A stretch of 64,000 bases of DNA from an uncultured Solirubrobacterales bacterium (GCA_963805475.1 CAWDUO010000005.1:60545-124544), one strand, 5' to 3'; numbered from the stretch's first letter, positions 2,601 through 57,833 are shown. The notes: generated by a model not told the origin, from the letters alone. Program-made: numbers and translations.

Positions 2601-2708
2601 TTCCGCTGTTCCTTAACCCGAAATAACAGGGCAAAGGAACAGCGCAACACGCGATCGGGCGTTCCGCTGTTCCTTTGCCGGACTTAACAGGGCAAAGGAA
2701 CAGCGGAA
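2601..2708. repeat. Tandem pair of family-A palindromic elements (degenerate copy 2601-2644, perfect copy 2662-2708)
   Basis: 2662-2679 TTCCGCTGTTCCTTTGCC pairs perfectly with 2691-2708 GGCAAAGGAACAGCGGAA across an 11-nt loop. The upstream copy shares CGCTGTTCCTT / AAGGAACAGCG. Same element at 33957-34001 and 56957-57003. Confidence 0.8.
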
Positions 2709-2750: not shown

Positions 2751-3563
2751 ATGCGCGTGCTGCTGACCAACGACGACGGGATCTCGGCGCCTGGGCTCCA
2801 GGCGGCGCGGCGGGCGCTGCGCGAGGTCGAGGGGGTCTCGGTCGAGGTGATCGCGCCGGACTCGAACCGCAGCGCGACGGCGCGCAGCATCACCACGCGC
2901 TCGCCGCTGAGCGTCGAGGAGGTCGAGTTCGGCGACGGCGACCGCGGCTTCGCCACCGACGGCACGCCGGTCGACTGCGTGCGCTTCGCCGAGCTGGGCC
3001 TGGTCGGCGAGCGGCCCGACCTGATCGTCTCCGGGATCAACCACGGCGCCAACCTCGGCGACGACATCACCTACTCGGGCACGGTCGCCGCCGCCCTGGA
3101 GGGGATCGTGCTCGGCATCCCGGCGCTGGCGATCTCCCAGCAGTCCTCGGGCGGCGGCATGGGCTACGTCAGCGGCCGCTTCGACTTCTCCGTCGCCGCG
3201 GCGTTCCTCGCCCAGCTGGTCGCCGCCCTGCGCACCGAGCCGATGCCGCCGGAGACGCTGGTCAACGTCAACTGCCCGGCCGGCGAGCCGACCGGGGTCG
3301 AGGTGACGAGGCTCGGCAAACGCGTCTACAACGACGAGCTGAAGCTGATCGGCGAGGACGAGGGGGGCCGGCGCCGCTACGAGATCTACGGCTGGGAGCC
3401 CGGCTTCGAGCAGCGCGAGGAGACCGACCTGATGGCCGTCTCGCAGGGACGGATCGCGGTCACGCCGATCCACTTCGACCTCACCGACCACGGCGAGCTC
3501 GACCGCCTGCGCGGCTGGCCGCTGGAGCGGATGCTGGACGCCGCCGTCCCCTCCTCGGCGTGA
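2751..3563 (+). CDS. surE: 5'/3'-nucleotidase SurE
   Basis: 270-aa ORF starting MRVLLTNDDGISAPGL, the SurE N-terminal metal-binding DD motif. GINHGANLGDDITYSGTV also present. Confidence 0.93.
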   Translation: MRVLLTNDDGISAPGLQAARRALREVEGVSVEVIAPDSNRSATARSITTRSPLSVEEVEFGDGDRGFATDGTPVDCVRFAELGLVGERPDLIVSGINHGANLGDDITYSGTVAAALEGIVLGIPALAISQQSSGGGMGYVSGRFDFSVAAAFLAQLVAALRTEPMPPETLVNVNCPAGEPTGVEVTRLGKRVYNDELKLIGEDEGGRRRYEIYGWEPGFEQREETDLMAVSQGRIAVTPIHFDLTDHGELDRLRGWPLERMLDAAVPSSA

Positions 3564-5599: not shown

Positions 5600-5604
5600 G
5601 ACTT

Positions 5605-5652
5605 CCGTTTTCGACTTTTTCCACACCCTGGGGTGGAAAAAGTCGAAAACGG
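5605..5652. repeat. Family-B palindromic element (20-bp perfect arms)
   Basis: CCGTTTTCGACTTTTTCCAC (5605-5624), 8-nt loop, GTGGAAAAAGTCGAAAACGG (5633-5652). Fills the ligA/PBP4 convergent gap. Related copy at 40126-40161. Confidence 0.85.
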
Positions 5653-5655
5653 GGG

Positions 5656-6900
5656 TCAGTAGGAGGCTACGGCGGCGGCTATCTGGTCCTGCTCGTAGTG
5701 GGCGAGGGTCAGGTCGCCTACGCCGTTCATCAGGATCGAGAAGATCATCGTGCGGCCGCTGCGGTTCTCGCAGACGCCGGAGAGGGCGCTGACGCCGGTC
5801 AGGGTGCCGGTCTTGACGTGGCAGCGGCCGTAGGCGGCGGTGCCGTGCATGCGGTCTTCGGCGGTGCCGGACTTGCCGGCCACCGCGAGGTCGCCGACGA
5901 AGTCCGCGCCGACCGGCGAGCGGCGGACCGCGTCCAGCAGGGCGACGACCTGGAGCGGCGAGGCGCGGTTGCCGCGGGTCAGGCCGGAGCCGTCGACCTG
6001 GTGGATGCCGGAGCCGTGGGCACGGGCGAAGCGCTCGACGACCGCGGCGCCGGCGGCGGTCGTGCCGGCGCCGCCGAAGTGGGCGCCGATCAGCTTGGCC
6101 AGCATCTCGGCGAAGAAGTTGTTCGAGTAGACGTCAGTGGCGGCGACGATCCGCGACAGCGGCGGCGAGCTGACGGAGGCGAGGGGGCGCGCCCCCGGGG
6201 GCGTGACGCCGCGGGCGACGCCGGCGCGGATCGCGACGCCGCCGGCGCGCAGCGCCCGCGCCAGCTTGGCGGCGGCGAGCCGGGCCGGGTCGCCGGCGAA
6301 GCCCTGGGAGATCGAGCCGCGGTAGCCGGAGTCGAAGGAGAGGCCGGAGAGCGGGCCGACGTAGGGGCTGGTGGCGTAGCCGGAGTCGGCGACGCCGCGC
6401 ACCCGGTCGAAGACGCTGTCGTCCTCATAGAGGCGCCCGGTGACGCGGCGCACGCCGGCGGCGCGCAGCTGCGCGCTCAGGCCGAGCAGGTTCGTGCCGA
6501 GTCCGCCCTCGTAGCGGTCGTAGAAGGAGGGGACGCCGAGCATCGGGTCGCCGGCGCCGCGCAGCCAGAGGCTGCCGTGCAGGACGCCGTGGGGGTCGAG
6601 CGCGCCGTCGGTCAGCAGGCCGGTCTCGATCCGGTAGTCGGGCCCGAAGCGGGTCAGCGCGGTCGACGTCGTGAACAGCTTGGTGTTGGAGGCGAGGATG
6701 CGCGGCCGCCGCGCCGCCCGCGCGCACGCCGGCCGGCCGCTGTCGGCGTCGATCACGAACAGGCCGCTGGCCGCGCCGCCGCCGTAAACGAGGCGTCGCT
6801 TCATCTCCCGGCAGGGTTCGCTCGCCGCGCTCGCCGTCGCGGCCGCCCAGAGCAGGGCGATCGCCAGGCAGGCGAGGAGCAAGGGGGCGGCTCGTCTCAT
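5656..6900 (-). CDS. dacB: D-alanyl-D-alanine carboxypeptidase/endopeptidase, PBP4 (peptidase S13) family
   Basis: Start taken at MRRAAPLLLACLAIALLWAAATASA (signal peptide). Active-site SNTK (ASNTKLFTTSTAL). C-terminal KTGTL motif. Confidence 0.85.
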   Translation of the reverse strand: MRRAAPLLLACLAIALLWAAATASAASEPCREMKRRLVYGGGAASGLFVIDADSGRPACARAARRPRILASNTKLFTTSTALTRFGPDYRIETGLLTDGALDPHGVLHGSLWLRGAGDPMLGVPSFYDRYEGGLGTNLLGLSAQLRAAGVRRVTGRLYEDDSVFDRVRGVADSGYATSPYVGPLSGLSFDSGYRGSISQGFAGDPARLAAAKLARALRAGGVAIRAGVARGVTPPGARPLASVSSPPLSRIVAATDVYSNNFFAEMLAKLIGAHFGGAGTTAAGAAVVERFARAHGSGIHQVDGSGLTRGNRASPLQVVALLDAVRRSPVGADFVGDLAVAGKSGTAEDRMHGTAAYGRCHVKTGTLTGVSALSGVCENRSGRTMIFSILMNGVGDLTLAHYEQDQIAAAVASY

Positions 6901-11798: not shown

Positions 11799-11817
11799 GC
11801 GAGGCCAAGAACCACCT

Positions 11818-11862
11818 CGCGTTCGCCTTTTGTCGGGCTCAGTCCGACAAAAGGCGAACGCG
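11818..11862. repeat. Family-C palindromic element (perfect 18-19-bp arms)
   Basis: GCGTTCGCCTTTTGTCGG (11819-11836), 7-nt loop, CCGACAAAAGGCGAACGC (11844-11861). Related copies at 37938-37980 and 54782-54824. Confidence 0.85.
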
Positions 11863-11880
11863 CGGGCGATACGTGGGGCA

Positions 11881-30156: not shown

Positions 30157-31125
30157 ATGCTTACCCGTGGAACGGGTAATGAACCAGGCGAGTTGACGAA
30201 CCTGGGTCCCATCGTCGCCACCGCGCTCGCCGCGGCTCTCTACACGCGGCGCAGCCGCGAGCTCGCCCGGCGCGGCAGGCCGATGCCCGCCTGGCGCCAG
30301 GCCTGCTTCTACCTCGGCCTCGCGGCGCTGCTGGCGGCGCTGATCTCGCCGCTCGACCGGATCGCCGAGACGCGGGTCTTCTACGCGCACATGATCCAGC
30401 ACCTGACGATCGGCGAACTGGCGCCGCTGCTGATCCTGCTCGGGCTCAGCGGCGCGATGCTGCGGCCGCTGCTCGCCCTGCCGCCGGCGCAGCGCCTGCG
30501 CTTCCTCGTCCTGCCGCTCGTCGCCCTGCCGATCTGGGCGATCAACCTCTATGCCTGGCACCTGCCGGCGCTCTACGAACTGGCGCTCGAAAACGAGCTC
30601 GTGCACTGGCTCGAGCACGGCATGTTCTTCGCCGCCGGGATGCTGATGTGGGGGGCGCTGATCGAGCCGATCCCGGGGCCCACCTGGTTCGGCTCCGGCG
30701 CCAAGGCGACCTACGTGCTGGCGGTGCGGGCGCTCGGCTGCGCGATCCTCGGCAACATCCTGATCTGGTCGGGCACGCCCCTGTACCCCGGCTACGCCGG
30801 AGGCGAGCGGATCTGGGGGATCTCGCCGCTGCGCGACCAGCAGATCGGCGGCGCGATCATGTTCATCTGGGGCGCCCTGATCACGATCGTCGTCTTCTCC
30901 TGGCTGTTCCTGCGCTGGCTGCGCGAGGCGGAGCTGCGCCAGTCCGCTGCTCGACGCCGGCGGCGACGAGCGGGCGGCCCTCAGGACCGCGCGCTACCGA
31001 CGGCGGTCTCCCGCTCGGCGCGCTGCTGCTCCGCCTCCACCGCCTCCATCCCCCTGAGGCCGAGGCAGACGCGCCAGGCTCCGAAGCCGATGACGATGGG
31101 CAGGATCCAGACCGCCACGCGGTAG
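30157..31125 (+). CDS. ctaG: Cytochrome c oxidase assembly factor CtaG (caa3_CtaG family); both ends uncertain
   Basis: Polytopic membrane protein with AHMIQHLTIGELAPLLILLG and EHGMFFAAGMLMW motifs. The last ~145 nt overlap the qcrB 3' end on the other strand. Confidence 0.7.
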   Translation: MLTRGTGNEPGELTNLGPIVATALAAALYTRRSRELARRGRPMPAWRQACFYLGLAALLAALISPLDRIAETRVFYAHMIQHLTIGELAPLLILLGLSGAMLRPLLALPPAQRLRFLVLPLVALPIWAINLYAWHLPALYELALENELVHWLEHGMFFAAGMLMWGALIEPIPGPTWFGSGAKATYVLAVRALGCAILGNILIWSGTPLYPGYAGGERIWGISPLRDQQIGGAIMFIWGALITIVVFSWLFLRWLREAELRQSAARRRRRRAGGPQDRALPTAVSRSARCCSASTASIPLRPRQTRQAPKPMTMGRIQTATR

Positions 31126-32343
31126 AACCAGACCTGGCTCATGTAGCCGATCCCGAGCCAGACCAGCATCCGGTCGGAGGCGCCGGCGAGGAAGATCATC
31201 ACCACCCAGGAGAGGAAGCCGGCGCCGATCGCGGTGCGCACCGGGGCGTCGCGCGGGCGCTGGAGCACGTTGTGGGTGCGCCGGTCGCCGGTCGCCCGCC
31301 GCTCCACCCAGGGCCAGGCGAGCAGCGCCCCCATGACCACGGTGGGGAAGAGGATGCCGCCCCAGAAGGGGTTCGGGACCAGGGTGCGGTTCCAGACGAC
31401 GACGTCGAAGCCGGGGACGAGCCGCAGGGCGCCGATCAGCCAGCCCAGGTACCAGTCGGGCTGCGCTCCGTTCGTCCCCTGGGAGACGTGGTAGGGGCCC
31501 CAGAGCCAGATCGGGTTGATCTGCACCAGCCCGCCGAGCAGCACCAGCGCCGCCGCGACGGCGAACAGCAGGCCGAGCGAGCGCGGCACCTGGGCCGGGA
31601 AGGCCGGCAGGCCGATCAGCCTGCGCTCGCCGGCGCACGCGCTCGCGCTTGAACTGCGTGTGGTGGCGCGAGGCGACGAGCGCCAGGTGGGCGGTCAGCA
31701 GGCCGCCGATCAGCAGCGGCAGCAGGAGGACGTGGGCGATGTACATGCGCGACCAGAGTTCCGGCCCGCCGGGGAACGGGTGGCCGAAGATCGCCAGCAT
31801 CAGGTTGGCGCCGACGAAGGGGATCGAGAGCCCGACCGCGTAGCCGATCGCCAGGCCCATGCCGGAGAGCAGGTCGTCGACCAGCGAGTAGCCGAGGTAG
31901 CCCTCGAGCAGGGCCGCGAACAGCATCAATATGCCGATGACATAGGTCAGCTCGCGCGGCTTGCGGTAGGCGCCGGTGAAGAAGACGCGGATCAGGTGCA
32001 GGACGATCGCCGCGACGAAGACGTCGGCGGCCCAGTGGTGGGTCTGGCGGATCAAGAGCCCGGCCTTGACGTCGAAGGAGATGTGCAGGACGGAGATGTA
32101 GGCCTTGCTGGCCTCGACGCCGTGCAGCGGCGTGTAGCTGCCTTCGTAGGTGTCCTTCGCGGTGCTCGGGTCGAAGAAGAAGGTCAGGTAGACGCCGGTC
32201 GCGACGAGCACGAGGAAGGCGTAGAGCGCCACCTCGCCGAGCAGGAAGGACCAGTGGTCGGGGAAGGCGTAGCGCAGCGTCCTGCGCAGCAGCGGCGCGG
32301 CGCCGCTGCGCTGGTCGAGGAAGCGGACAGTGCGGCGGATCAC
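30981..32343 (-). CDS. qcrB: Cytochrome bc1 complex cytochrome b subunit QcrB; apparent +1 frameshift in 31605-31650
   Basis: The N-terminal 240 aa (FPDHWSFLLGEVALY...RQTHHWAADVF...ASRHHTQFK) lie in one frame. ERRLIGLPAFPAQVPRSLGLLF...INPIWLWGPY...HNVLQRPRDAPVRTAIG lies in the next. Confidence 0.85.
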
Positions 32344-33233
32344 GCCGAGGGCCTCCGCGTGCGCACGCCCCAGAAGGCCGGTCCGACCGGTCCGGAGAGC
32401 TGGCCGGCGGCGCGCAGGTCGCCCTCCGAGTCGACCAGCAGCGGCAGCTGCGGCAGCGGCCGTCCCGCCGGGCCGAAGGTCACTTCGGCGCCGCGCGCCG
32501 GGTCGAAGGTCGAGTAGTGGCAGGGGCAGACCAGCGCCGGACCGGGCTCGGCGGCCGGGAACTTCGGGTCGCGGTAGAGGGCGATCGCGCAGCCGGCGTG
32601 GGTGCAGATCTTCGAGTAGGCGACGATCCCCTCCGGCGTCCAGCCCTTGCGCCCGGCCGGCATCTCCAGTTCGCCGGGGTCGAGCCGCACGACGACCAGC
32701 GGCGCCGCCAGCTCCTCGCGGTAGGCGTGCTCGGGGTAGGCGGTGTAGAAGGTCCTCTGCTCGATCTCCTCGGCGGCGTAGGGCTTGCCGTCCTCGTCGA
32801 CCAGGCGGCGGTCGCGGCGCCAGGGCGAGTAGTAGAAGGACTCGGTGTCGAGCAGCGGGCCGAAGGAGGCGGCGGGCACGACCAGCGCCGCCCCGAGCGC
32901 CGCCCCGGCCGCCCCCGCGGCGCCGATCAGCAGCCGCTTGCGGGTGAAGCGGTCGCCGCTCTCGGCGAGCAGCCGGTCGACCGCGTCCTGCTCGGCCGGG
33001 TGCTCGGCCGCCGGATAGTCCTCCTCGACCTCTTCGTCGGCCGCCGGGAAGAGCTTCTCGCCGGCGAGGATCAGCGCCGCGGCGAGCAGCGCCAGCGCGA
33101 CGCCGAGGCAGAGGCCCAGGTACTGGGTCAGGTGCGGCCAGTCGAGGGCATAGACGACGACGAACATCAGCGCGCAGGCGGCGGCGCCGAGCAGCAGCAG
33201 GGCGACGAGCAGCTCCGATCGCTCCCGCTTCAC
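32340..33233 (-). CDS. qcrA: Cytochrome bc1 complex Rieske iron-sulfur subunit QcrA
   Basis: Rieske motifs CTHAGC and CPCH, with N-terminal TM helices. 4-nt overlaps with qcrC and qcrB. Confidence 0.9.
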   Translation of the reverse strand: MKRERSELLVALLLLGAAACALMFVVVYALDWPHLTQYLGLCLGVALALLAAALILAGEKLFPAADEEVEEDYPAAEHPAEQDAVDRLLAESGDRFTRKRLLIGAAGAAGAALGAALVVPAASFGPLLDTESFYYSPWRRDRRLVDEDGKPYAAEEIEQRTFYTAYPEHAYREELAAPLVVVRLDPGELEMPAGRKGWTPEGIVAYSKICTHAGCAIALYRDPKFPAAEPGPALVCPCHYSTFDPARGAEVTFGPAGRPLPQLPLLVDSEGDLRAAGQLSGPVGPAFWGVRTRRPSA

Positions 33234-34054
33234 GTCTTCAGCCTGCTTCCGATCAGCACGCAGACGCCGGTCAGCGCGACCGCCGCGACCAGCCAGGCGA
33301 CCAGGCCCTCGGGGACGGGACCGAGGTGGCCGATGCCGAGCCCGCCCTCGTCTTCGGGGTGCTGGCTGGCGAGCACGTAGGCGACGATCTTGTTCAGGTC
33401 GGCGTCGCCGATCTGCGATTTGGGGAACTTCGGCATCAGGAAGGGCCCGATCCGCACCGCCTCGGCGATCTCGGTCGCGTTCGCATGCTGGAGCACCGGC
33501 ACCTTGGCGCCGCTCACGTAGCCGCCTTCGCCGACCACCTGGTGGCAGCCGGCGCAGTGCTCGGTGAACAGGGACATGCCTTCGGTAAGCGCGTGGTAGT
33601 CCGGCTTCGGGTCGGGGACTTCGGGGCCGCCGCCGAAGCTCGCCACGTAGGCGCTGATCGCGGCGATCTCACGCGGGTTGAACCAGGGGCGGCGCCGTTC
33701 GGGCTCTTCGCCGGCGTGGTTCAGCGGCATCCGCCCGGTGCGCAGGTAGAAGTCCGGCGCCAGCTCGCCGACCCCGCGCAGCGGCGGTCCCTGGGCGGTG
33801 GTGTCGCCGGCGCCGCGGTTGCTGGGGCGGGCGACGCCTTCGCCCATCGGGCCGTGGCAGCTGGCGCAGTTGGCGGCGAAGAGGCCGGCGCCGAGCCGGC
33901 GCTCGCTGATCCGCGAGCCGCCGGGAACGTGCACGATGCCGCTCGGCGGCTCGGCCTCCGCTGTTCCTTTTCCTCGTATAGCAGGGAAAAGGAACAGCGG
34001 AACGAGTATGGGGGCCAGGATCGCGACGGCGAGCATCTGCGTCCGCCGGCTCAT
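33230..34054 (-). CDS. qcrC: Dihaem cytochrome c subunit QcrC
   Basis: Two CxxCH motifs (CASCH, CAGCH), a C-terminal TM anchor and an N-terminal hydrophobic segment. The start overlaps the upstream stop (ATGA). Confidence 0.88.
   Translation of the reverse strand: MSRRTQMLAVAILAPILVPLFLFPAIRGKGTAEAEPPSGIVHVPGGSRISERRLGAGLFAANCASCHGPMGEGVARPSNRGAGDTTAQGPPLRGVGELAPDFYLRTGRMPLNHAGEEPERRRPWFNPREIAAISAYVASFGGGPEVPDPKPDYHALTEGMSLFTEHCAGCHQVVGEGGYVSGAKVPVLQHANATEIAEAVRIGPFLMPKFPKSQIGDADLNKIVAYVLASQHPEDEGGLGIGHLGPVPEGLVAWLVAAVALTGVCVLIGSRLKT
33957..34001. repeat. Family-A palindromic element inside the qcrC coding sequence
   Basis: TCCGCTGTTCCTTTTCC (33957-33973), 11-nt loop, GGAAAAGGAACAGCGGA (33985-34001). 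45 nt, translated as (V)PLFLFPAIRGKGTA(E) within qcrC. Confidence 0.85.
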
Positions 34055-34452
34055 GACTGGTTGCAGACGTGGTAGGTGAGGGCCCCGGAGGCGGTCATCG
34101 CGATCAGCACGAAGAACAGCGAGGAGACCGTCATCCCGACGACGCCGAGGAAGGCGATGCGGCCGGGCGGCGGCGCGTCCTTGTAGTCGCCGGTGCGGCG
34201 GAAGAGCCAGAGGGCGGTCAACCCGGCGGCGAGCGCGACCGACGCCGCTACGGCGCCGACGGCGATTCCCCAGACGGCGAGCGAGATGCCCCACATGCCG
34301 CCGGTCGGGCTGCACTCCGCCTCGGCCAGCCAGTAGCCGAGGCCGATCTGGAGCACGTAGGCGGCGGGAGCGCCGAGGACCGCGAACCAGAGCACCGGCG
34401 AGACCGGCGAGGAGGGCGGGATCCGCTCCGCTATCGGCTCCAGCGCCTTCAT
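34051..34452 (-). CDS. Small polytopic membrane protein between ctaE and qcrC (possible oxidase/supercomplex accessory subunit)
   Basis: 133 aa with 3-4 TM helices (VLWFAVLGAPAAYVLQIGLGYWL..., ISLAVWGIAVGAVAASVALAAGL...). ATGA overlaps on both sides. Confidence 0.6.
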   Translation of the reverse strand: MKALEPIAERIPPSSPVSPVLWFAVLGAPAAYVLQIGLGYWLAEAECSPTGGMWGISLAVWGIAVGAVAASVALAAGLTALWLFRRTGDYKDAPPPGRIAFLGVVGMTVSSLFFVLIAMTASGALTYHVCNQS

Positions 34453-40089: not shown

Positions 40090-40125
40090 CTCATACCCGT
40101 GTGCGGCGCCGTCGAAACGGCGTTT

Positions 40126-40161
40126 CCGGCTTTTTCCACGCCATAGGGTGGAAAAAGCCGG
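40126..40161. repeat. Family-B palindromic element, copy 2 (14-bp arms)
   Basis: CCGGCTTTTTCCAC (40126-40139), 8-nt loop, GTGGAAAAAGCCGG (40148-40161). Lies in the divergent spacer between the sigma factor and GH15 genes. Confidence 0.75.
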
Positions 40162-40200
40162 GATCGGTTTGCCGACCACGGCGCAGGGTACGCGGCCGGC

Positions 40201-45784: not shown

Positions 45785-45865
45785 CGCGCGGGTCCTGTCG
45801 GAAGGGAAGGGGGTGTTAGCGGCCTCACCCGGCCGAACACCCCCTTCCCTTCCGCCACCCGCGCG
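45785..45865. repeat. 81-nt nested inverted repeat
   Basis: CGGAAGGGAAGGGGGTGTT (45799-45817) pairs with AACACCCCCTTCCCTTCCG (45836-45854). Outer pair CGCGCGGGT (45785-45793) / ACCCGCGCG (45857-45865). Inner pair CGGCC/GGCCG. Confidence 0.75.
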
Positions 45866-56311: not shown

Positions 56312-56947
56312 TCATTTGGCAGGAACGCTTGCGAGCGACTCCCAGAGGTAGAGCGAGGCGAGGCTGCGGTGCGGGCGCCAGGCCTCGCCGATCTCCAGCA
56401 CCTGGCCCGGCGGCGGCATCTCCGCCAGCCCGTACTCGATCCGCACCGCCTTGCGGATGCCGAGGTCGCCGCCGGAGAGCACGTCGGGCCGCTCGAGGTG
56501 GAAGAGCAGGAACATCTCCGCGGTCCACTGGCCGAGCCCGCGCACGGCGACGATCTCCTCGACGACCCGCTCGTCGGAGAGCTCGCCGAGGCGGTCGAGC
56601 TCGAGCTCGCCGTCGAGCACGTGGGCGGCGAGGTCGCGCACGTAGGAGACCTTGCGGCCGGAGAGCCCGCAGCCGCGCAGCTCCTCCTCGCTCGCCTCGA
56701 GCAGCCGCTCGGGCGAGGGGGCGGCGCCGCCGAACAGGTCGAGCACCCGCGCGTAGATCGTCCGCGCCGCCTTGGTCGAGAGCTGCTGGCCGACGATCGC
56801 CCGCAGCAGGGCGCCGTAGGCGTCTGCCGGGCGCTCCTCGGCGCGGCGCCGCAGCCGCGTCGCCAGGTCGATCTCGCCGAGCCGCTCGATCAGCGCCGCC
56901 ATCGCCGGGTCGGCGGCGGCCAGCGCCGCCCGCGCCTCGGCGCTCAC
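56312..56947 (-). CDS. DNA-3-methyladenine glycosylase II (AlkA-like, HhH-GPD)
   Basis: GTG start. HhH-GPD pattern LRGCGLSGRKVSYVRDLA...VRGLGQWTAEMFLLF...D. Confidence 0.8.
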   Translation of the reverse strand: MSAEARAALAAADPAMAALIERLGEIDLATRLRRRAEERPADAYGALLRAIVGQQLSTKAARTIYARVLDLFGGAAPSPERLLEASEEELRGCGLSGRKVSYVRDLAAHVLDGELELDRLGELSDERVVEEIVAVRGLGQWTAEMFLLFHLERPDVLSGGDLGIRKAVRIEYGLAEMPPPGQVLEIGEAWRPHRSLASLYLWESLASVPAK

Positions 56948-56956
56948 AAACGCTCC

Positions 56957-57003
56957 TTCCGCTGTTCCTTATCCCTCAATAACGAGGAAAAGGAACAGCG
57001 GAA
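56957..57003. repeat. Family-A palindromic element, copy in the crotonase/AlkA-like spacer
   Basis: TTCCGCTGTTCCTTATCC (56957-56974), 11-nt loop, GGAAAAGGAACAGCGGAA (56986-57003), one mismatch. Confidence 0.85.
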
Positions 57004-57008
57004 CGTCG

Positions 57009-57833
57009 TCATCGGCCCTGCCAGCGCGGCCGGCGCTTCTCGGCGAAGGCCTCGATGCCCTCGCGCAGGTCGGCGGAGGCGAAGCACGATTCGCGCAGGG
57101 CGATCAGGCCGCTCTCCTGCTGCTCGCTCAGCACCGGGTTCGAGTTGAGCACCTCGATCGCGCGCTTGTTGCCGCGCATCGAGAGCGGCGCGTTGGCGGC
57201 GATCCGCTCGGCGAGGGCGATCGAGGCCCCTTCGAGCGCCTCGTCGTCGACCACCTCGTGGACGAGGCCGATCTCCTCGGCCCGCGCGGCCTCGAAGTTG
57301 CGGCCGGTGAGGAACAGCTCCTTGGTCCGCGCCAGGCCGACCGTGTCGAGGAACTTGCGCAGGCCGGTGTGGCCGTAGACGAGGCCGAGCTTGGCCGGCG
57401 GCATGCCGAGCTTGGCGCCGCTGGCGCAGATCCGCATGTCGCAGGTGATCGCCAGCTCCAGCCCGCCGCCGAGGCAGTGGCCGTTGATCGCCGCGACGGT
57501 CGGCCAGGGGTGGGCGGCGAGCGCCTCCATCGCGTCGTGGAAGGGGTGGGCGACGAGCGCCTCGGCGTCGCGTTCGAAGGTCTCGCGCGGGATCGAGGCG
57601 AGGTCGTAGCCGGCCGAGAAGGCGGGCGGCGCGCCGGTGATCATCACGCAGCGGGTCTCGATCCCGCGGTCGAGCCGCGGCAGCGCCTCCGCCAGCGCGT
57701 CGAGGATCTCGTGGTCGAGGGCGTTGCGGCGCTCGGGGTTGAAGATGCGGATGCGGGCGACCGCCTCGGCCGGCGAGTCGAGGATCAGCTTGCCGGAGGC
57801 GAGCCGCTCTTCAACCGGGCGCTCCGCGCTCAC
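57009..57833 (-). CDS. Enoyl-CoA hydratase/isomerase (crotonase) family protein
   Basis: 274 aa. FSAGYDL and AAINGHCLGGGLELAITCDMRI are crotonase signatures. Confidence 0.88.
   Translation of the reverse strand: MSAERPVEERLASGKLILDSPAEAVARIRIFNPERRNALDHEILDALAEALPRLDRGIETRCVMITGAPPAFSAGYDLASIPRETFERDAEALVAHPFHDAMEALAAHPWPTVAAINGHCLGGGLELAITCDMRICASGAKLGMPPAKLGLVYGHTGLRKFLDTVGLARTKELFLTGRNFEAARAEEIGLVHEVVDDEALEGASIALAERIAANAPLSMRGNKRAIEVLNSNPVLSEQQESGLIALRESCFASADLREGIEAFAEKRRPRWQGR

Follow-up and report, generated by a model that had tools for sequence, protein, structure and literature searches.

A 64,000-nucleotide (nt) stretch of DNA from an uncultured Solirubrobacterales bacterium, hereafter the window, carries qcrC, the gene for the dihaem cytochrome c subunit of the bc complex, and close to the 5′ end of this gene lies a 45-nt palindrome (33957..34001, minus strand). 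The palindrome is a copy of a repeat family, family A, which is probably mobile, resembles the repetitive extragenic palindromes (REPs) and is spread through a Solirubrobacterales clade; this copy lies in frame in the region coding for the predicted QcrC signal peptide and very likely now encodes part of that signal.

On the plus strand, the element reads TCCGCTGTTCCTTTTCC-tcgtatagcag-GGAAAAGGAACAGCGGA. Arm 1 (33957..33973) is 100% complementary to arm 2 (33985..34001) over 17 bp, and the 11-nt loop between them (33974..33984; CTGCTATACGA in mRNA sense) has an AT-rich centre like that of other family copies. With up to three mismatches allowed, the arm motif has eight matches in the window, which make up four hairpins, against 0.05 in dinucleotide shuffles; hence, the palindrome is not a chance match. 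Folded in mRNA sense, the hairpin has a centroid energy of -34 kcal/mol (z = -5.5), and its perfect arms match a subfamily variant (TTTTCC) known at other loci. The insert also stands apart from its host gene in composition, with a third-position G+C content (GC3) of 0.40 against 0.93 in the remaining qcrC, and an overall G+C content of 51% against 71%. The stem is followed by GGCCGAGCC, and no terminator-like site or U-tract was found on the minus (mRNA) strand at this copy; an identity as an intrinsic terminator was rejected for want of a U-tract on the transcribed strand. In an Rfam scan of the window, a tRNA elsewhere was the only match over the gathering threshold, and the matches near the element were generic hairpins of at most 28 bits, against cut-offs of 51-98 bits.

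The host gene itself is readily identified. The 274-aa product of the minus-strand gene at 33230..34054 has two CxxCH haem-binding motifs (CASCH and CAGCH), PF00034/PF13442 domains and a C-terminal transmembrane (TM) helix, LVAWLVAAVALTGVCVLIG. It aligns with Mycobacterium smegmatis QcrC (6adq_C) over residues 24-271 (E = 2.7e-36), its homologues number in the thousands, the best being from metagenome-assembled genomes (MAGs) of Solirubrobacterales at 83-89% identity, and the gene stands in the operon order ctaC-ctaD-ctaE-orf133-qcrC-qcrA-qcrB. The start codon is anchored by the upstream open reading frame (ORF), which encodes a conserved 133-aa membrane protein (34051..34452, minus strand) that aligns end to end with its orthologue; its TGA stop (34051-34053) overlaps the qcrC ATG as ATGA. 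An ATGA or GTGA overlap is also found at the qcrC start in L111, L112, L113, L116, L117 and L118, and at the DNA level the first 18 qcrC codons share homology with orthologous 5′ ends. The element occupies nt 54-98 of the gene, from the third base of codon 18 to the second base of codon 33, and would be translated as (V)PLFLFPAIRGKGTA(E). The first in-frame start past it is a GTG within IVHV, 7 codons downstream; a start there would give a QcrC without a signal peptide, as only AEA stands between the element and EPPSG.

An earlier sequence-only reading of the window had described a perfect-armed palindrome belonging to a repeat family, foreign in codon usage, 15 codons long, read in frame and truly inside the coding sequence (CDS), as judged from the ATGA overlap. 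All of this is borne out by the data above and, for the family, by four copies in the window and more than 110 loci in other genomes; a translation start downstream of position 33957, which would have undone that reading, leaves no export signal. One detail needs correcting: the junction left by deleting the element had been given as ...APILV|AEAEPP, and is computed here as ...APILV|AEPPSG.

What the element encodes was judged against the orthologues. Those listed all start with a basic n-region, after which come an uncharged run with a median of 19 residues, an AxA motif and the conserved sequence (E/Q)PPSGIVH. AxA directly precedes (E/Q)PPSG in 96 of 109 orthologues, while the pre-sequence itself is variable. 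The QcrC of the window follows the same plan, with a 20-residue uncharged run and then AEA|EPPSG, although 34 residues stand ahead of EPPSG, as opposed to 24-26 in most orthologues. Hence, codons 1-34 (33953..34054, minus strand) appear to encode a cleavable Sec-type signal peptide rather than a membrane anchor, with MSRRTQ as n-region, MLAVAILAPILVPLFLFPAI as hydrophobic core, RGKGTAEA as c-region and a predicted cleavage site before E35 (EPPSG). The sequence-only reading had taken this segment for a membrane anchor, a view at odds both with the AxA motif of the orthologues and with the mature QcrC of Corynebacterium glutamicum, whose only membrane anchor is a C-terminal TM helix (PMC8795186).

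The residues encoded by the element are absent at this position from all 119 QcrC orthologues compared, which makes the insertion lineage-specific; no distant relative was found to carry the same 15 residues encoded by non-palindromic DNA. A protein search with the 57-aa N-terminus yielded no candidates for further QcrCs bearing an insertion, and in JGI metagenomes, scans gave no match for a family-A arm placed 1-31 or 32-62 nt ahead of the PPSGIVH codons. In the DNA alignment, the element (45-47 nt) stands where the orthologues have about 20 nt (GCGCCGCGACCGTSGCGCTS). The net change in the protein is therefore +8 residues rather than +15, because some 20 nt of ancestral sequence were lost; this figure includes a 1-codon gap upstream of the element. 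The uncharged run would measure 13 residues with the element removed and measures 20 with it, close to the orthologue median, so that the growth of the hydrophobic segment from about 12 to about 20 residues, as previously proposed, is better described as a replacement. The element supplies 8 of the 20 residues of the hydrophobic core (PLFLFPAI), and judging from the alignment these now appear to be an integral part of it.

Family A has the consensus YTCCGCTGTTCCTTTGCC-N11-GGCAAAGGAACAGCGGAR (45 nt). The three window copies besides the one in qcrC are all intergenic: two stand in tandem between divergent genes, the first with imperfect arms (2602..2646) and the second with 18-bp perfect arms (2663..2707), and a third (56958..57002) takes up the spacer of 61 nt that separates two genes on the minus strand (stop at 57009, start at 56947). 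An arm scan of a genome collection that did not include the window's own genome returned more than 110 loci, the best of them 87-89% identical to the window, and at least 12 MAG species (Solirubrobacterales, Conexibacteraceae and 'uncultured Actinomycetes') occur among the matches listed. Each was retrieved as an 8-kb locus. Together with the window, these loci hold 143 copies, 138 of which are exactly 45 nt long with near-invariant arms. The position profile of the 138 copies shows the ends YTCCG and CGGAR, while neither GTAG nor CGTC is conserved within the flanking 12 nt. Unrelated loci share certain loop types (CTAAATAACTG, CCTCTATACCC and CYGCTATNNNG), with an AT-rich loop centre, and some intergenic copies at other loci have A- or T-runs in their flanks. 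By neighbouring genes, 53 intergenic copies are unidirectional, 18 convergent and 4 divergent. Family A thus fits the description of a REP: a short palindrome in many copies, mostly extragenic and depleted between divergent genes.

Since the window and the retrieved loci were too rearranged to yield clean empty sites, the loci were compared with each other. Filled and empty sites were found between related genomes, among them an in-frame case of exactly +45 nt (L095 versus L018 and L016), while several intergenic cases differ by 54-62 nt. None of the filled/empty comparisons (L095, L072, L101, L056 and GalT) revealed a target-site duplication, and at some filled sites the element replaces a few target bases. 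In GalT, filled sites (L016:4308-4352 and L095:482-527) gain about 33 nt, not 45, over empty ones (L018:~5890 and L038:~1390); the empty site already has TCCGC...GCGAGC-like ends that resemble the outer ends of the element, giving the same look of replacement as in qcrC. Several empty sites are themselves short GC-rich palindromes, which hints that family A targets or replaces small hairpins. Between orthologous copies the arms are 96-100% identical, the flanks about 80% and the loops 18%-90%, with loops sometimes flipped. Loop orientation shows no bias with respect to transcription (17:19). In the 8-kb loci, to which this search was confined, no transposase, including the REP-associated tyrosine transposase (RAYT), was linked to family A. 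One locus (L100:5418-6632) has tandem family-A dimers on both sides of an ORF of about 314 aa (L100:5568-6509), DUF559/AbiEi-like by eye, in a REPtron-like arrangement. As a general mobiliser this ORF was rejected, being no Y1 transposase and occurring in no other locus.

The qcrC copy is not alone in being read within a gene. In-frame calls were made by a screen for codon usage and ORF continuity, followed by two Pfam scans, and 21 of 134 evaluable copies (about 16%) lie in frame within genes. Fifteen of the 21 were Pfam-scanned, with domains that span or flank the insert; four were assigned by orthology (L089, L086, L096 and L054) and L095 by its empty site, and the window qcrC completes the set. 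The hosts are HyuB (L044, and L089 by orthology), a HAD hydrolase (L053, and L086 and L096 by orthology), a P-type ATPase (L070), a TPP enzyme (L097), a PMT-like glycosyltransferase (L056), a 3-hydroxyacyl-CoA dehydrogenase (L039, and L054 by orthology), an SDR (L037), YfiH-like proteins (Cu-oxidase_4; L030 and L027), BirA (L038), MurF (L045), Exo_endo_phos (L014), a UvrD/PD-(D/E)XK helicase-nuclease (L102), an alpha/beta hydrolase (L002) and GalT (L016). At a coding density of about 90%, a 16% share within CDSs is still a strong depletion; it is also much above that of classical REPs.

Three peptides come from the frames of the element, namely SAVPLP-x4-GQRNSG, LRCSFA-x4-AKEQR(K/S/N) and (L/V/A)PLFL(C/F/Y)P-x3-GKGTAE, and across independent in-CDS events the frames are used 11:4:1. 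Only the copy in the qcrC signal peptide is read in the third, hydrophobic frame, apart from a putative example in L068, within a polytopic membrane protein. Averaged over copies, 76% of the six frames are free of stops (about 4.6 of 6). Had the qcrC copy been flipped, a stop codon would stand in that frame.

From these observations a simple course of events can be proposed. A copy of 45 nt is exactly 15 codons, and thus the reading frame is never shifted. Selection would retain only those copies whose peptide fits the local protein context, and the qcrC copy occupies the sole orientation and frame to give a hydrophobic, stop-free peptide (PLFLFPAI-RGKGTA). About 20 nt coding for the ancestral core and c-region were lost at insertion or later, leaving the element to provide the 8 core residues and most of the c-region, while the positive n-region and the AxA motif (AEA|EPPSG) are kept. 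The ribosome would read through the hairpin, and QcrC would be exported via the Sec pathway. The element-encoded residues would most likely be removed with the signal peptide, in which case the mature cytochrome would be unchanged. Insertion would have been tolerated as roughly neutral, and the element may since have become structurally necessary for the signal peptide. A mostly stop-free palindrome of 15 codons, together with selection for local fit, explains the facts with no need for a function of the peptide.

Several points weigh against this account. R27 and K29 lie just past the core, an uncommon arrangement in a c-region that could lower the cleavage or export of QcrC, although Arg at -2 is tolerated in some orthologues. 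Translation, export and cleavage of QcrC are themselves read from sequence. No close relative (>90% identity) with an empty qcrC site turned up that would order the insertion and the 20-nt loss. As no transposase was identified, mobility rests only on patterns of presence and absence. Arm conservation is biased, since the loci were retrieved by exact arm matches. Finally, as at least one indel is present in the assembled window, in qcrB, single-base accuracy cannot be taken for granted. That gene (minus strand, ORF 30994..32343) carries a 1-nt insertion at 31620-31640 (GTGCGCCGGCG versus GTGC-CGGGCG in two orthologues), which shifts its frame after about residue 236; both halves are 86-92% identical to the L112 orthologue, so that the frameshift is probably an assembly indel and not the mark of a pseudogene.

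Among the other explanations, that of an uncleaved N-terminal signal anchor, in which the element residues would stay in mature QcrC as a second membrane anchor, as the sequence-only reading had it, is unlikely but deserves attention. A 20-residue uncharged run is long enough to span the membrane, and R27 and K29, together with three prolines, may hinder signal peptidase. Against this stand AEA|EPPSG, kept exactly at the AxA position of 96 of 109 orthologues, the equally long uncharged runs of those orthologues (median 19), which belong to ordinary signal peptides, and the single C-terminal TM helix of the C. glutamicum protein (PMC8795186). It is very improbable that the element goes untranslated, either because qcrC starts downstream or because it is a decaying pseudogene in a damaged operon. 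The qcrB frameshift and the finding that an annotated N-terminal REP often turns out to be extragenic (PMC3733652) would fit such a view, as would a TTG behind a palindrome in the qcrC of L116, described below, that is a possible new start; yet a downstream start gives a cytochrome c without an export signal, the first 18 codons are homologous to orthologous signal peptides, qcrC is otherwise intact (GC3 0.93, both CxxCH motifs, 83-89% identity to orthologues) and the match of both qcrB halves to L112 speaks for assembly error. We therefore rejected this reading, as no signal peptide would remain in a gene that is otherwise intact. An assembly or sequencing artefact is suggested by the likely indel error in the window, but is extremely improbable: numerous assemblies, made independently by different projects and pipelines, contain the family, the insert leaves the ORF exactly in frame, and the perfect arms match the TTTTCC variant found elsewhere.

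A role of the hairpin in the mRNA calls for a closer look at other qcrC genes. Palindromic insertions occur within the first ~30 codons of qcrC in 3 of 121 lineages, namely the window, L111/P0016 and L116/P0050, and the hairpin is absent in the other 118. In L111/P0016 (L111:305-425), 162 nt are added after about codon 7, as two hairpins of a subfamily related to family A (CTGTTCCTTTTGCC...); in L116/P0050 (L116:285-340), 81 nt are added after about codon 9, as an unrelated palindrome, CTTCTCGGAGATTCGGGGGG-tcata-GCCCCCCGAATCTCGGAG. Both keep the ATGA start, although the L116 case is ambiguous, since the TTG right behind the palindrome could be a new start. Together with the different palindrome families at orthologous intergenic sites, this recurrence can be read in two ways: hairpin elements may target particular sites, as the tendency of empty sites to be short GC-rich palindromes would suggest, or some sites may benefit from a hairpin. 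The hairpin in qcrC may have been kept because it sets the ratio of ctaCDE and the 133-aa ORF to qcrCAB, be it through RNA processing, as a stability barrier or by slowing elongation; its coding role would then be secondary. In favour of this are the independent palindromes early in qcrC, the different palindrome families found at the same orthologous sites across genomes, the many copies just before operon start codons (nuoC-nuoD in four genomes being an example) and the great stability of the hairpin. However, 118 of 121 orthologues do without one, the three insertions lie at different codons, the mRNA strand has no U-tract or terminator, no Rfam family reaches its gathering score, and the orientation of the loop is unbiased with respect to transcription. 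Moreover, by a rough estimate, about one copy per 16 kb and a tolerant target make 3 of 121 only mildly above chance. We treat such a role as the chief rival of our account, but as quite unlikely. More speculative still, and a decidedly long shot, is the proposal that the qcrC 5′ end is a selected hairpin site for which families were recruited independently in three lineages, tuning the translation or survival of the cta-qcr message beyond the oxidase genes and so setting the bcc-aa3 stoichiometry, with genomes swapping hairpin cassettes at fixed functional sites, CDSs included. A family-A copy that landed in frame in the signal-peptide region remains our preferred explanation.

A few further observations concern the surroundings of these elements. 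In four genomes (L017:5434, L032:1779, L034:6226 and L041:6852), a family-A copy with related loops is conserved at the nuoC-nuoD junction, 5-6 codons ahead of where nuoD starts, and many other copies directly precede start codons within operons. At some orthologous sites, family A in one genome faces another palindrome family in the next (L075:5116-5160 versus L046:~3040-3100; L104:886-930 versus L012:~1830-1875), the alternatives being CCGCCGATGGGCC...GGCCCATCGGCGG and GGCGACTTAGTCGCA...TGCGACTAAGTCGCC. The window itself has strong inverted repeats of different sequence at 5600-5657, 11815-11865, 40102-40185 and 45796-45857 (for example, with GTGGAAAAAG-containing arms), and these four are probably further palindrome families of the genome. 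In the QcrC homologues of four lineages, P0059, P0067, P0073 and P0111 (about 370 aa), the upstream four-TM 133-aa ORF is fused to QcrC, and the signal peptide is missing; export and anchoring appear to fall instead to the final TM helix of the upstream protein.

Taken together, our results extend in-frame palindromic colonisation of genes from Rickettsia, where it is best known, to soil Actinomycetota that are free-living and high in G+C; the family has a simple design of 15 mostly stop-free codons. The peptide of such an element as a working part of the export signal of an essential protein would illustrate how signal peptides absorb mobile DNA. In such genomes, gene callers and homology pipelines will misplace starts or give odd N-terminal extensions, as in P0016 and P0050. 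About one in six family-A copies adds 15 residues to an ordinary enzyme, and these amount to natural loop-insertion experiments. Whether hairpins are targeted or functional can be probed through the recurrent events at the qcrC 5′ end and through the swapping of one palindrome family for another at orthologous sites. A full-text literature search for palindromic elements in Solirubrobacterales found no description of them.

The nearest parallel is with the Rickettsia palindromic elements (RPEs), RPE-1 to RPE-10, which are established as in-frame palindromic insertions in Rickettsia, though not all copies lie in genes (Ogata et al. 2000, summarised in PMC10969869 and PMC3733652). The sequence-only reading had named them as the precedent; the analogy holds, but in-frame intragenic REPs have already been described outside Rickettsia (PMC3733652). 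In both cases a repeated palindrome, often in frame in unrelated functional genes, adds a short peptide, and N-terminal RPE insertions are known. RPE-1, however, is about 100-150 bp long and belongs to AT-rich, obligate intracellular Alphaproteobacteria (PMC10969869), whereas family A has 45 nt and belongs to free-living Solirubrobacterales (Actinomycetota) of 71% G+C; nearly half of the RPE-1 copies lie in CDSs, as opposed to about 16% for family A. The two are set apart by length and host lineage, and probably share no sequence similarity. The qcrC copy differs further in that its peptide lies in a signal peptide and is probably removed. In its behaviour family A thus resembles an RPE, yet it falls outside RPE-1 to RPE-10.

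In-frame GTAG/CGTC REPs are known from Opitutus, Thauera, Xanthomonas and other genera, N-termini included (PMC10969869; Di Nocera et al. 2013, PMC3733652). Family A shares with them the short stem-loops, the high copy number, the preference for unidirectional and convergent spacers, the minority of in-frame copies, again including N-termini, and the lack of target-site duplication. Its stems, however, have no tag at the foot, ending instead in YTCCG and CGGAR, and single 45-nt units are the rule, whereas REPs form dimers; a RAYT-mobilised REP, as recognised by its tag, was rejected on the 138-copy profile. MITEs (transposable elements of miniature size with inverted repeats) such as Correia/NEMIS, ERIC and RUP (PMC10969869) are likewise small and non-autonomous, with inverted-repeat ends, presence/absence polymorphism and occasional in-frame ORF fusions. 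Yet family A consists of essentially two arms and a loop in 45 nt, no parent insertion sequence (IS) is known (the family-A end for comparison with IS ends is TTCCGCTGTTCC), and the absence of target-site duplication sets it apart from classical MITEs. Among actinobacterial short repeats, the mycobacterial interspersed repetitive units (MIRUs) also lie at gene junctions within operons and are read by the ribosome. Unlike palindromes embedded in a host CDS, however, they are direct tandem repeats in intergenic spacers, with small coupled ORFs. The palindrome in qcrC is thus a clear new example of a known phenomenon, and not a new kind of system.

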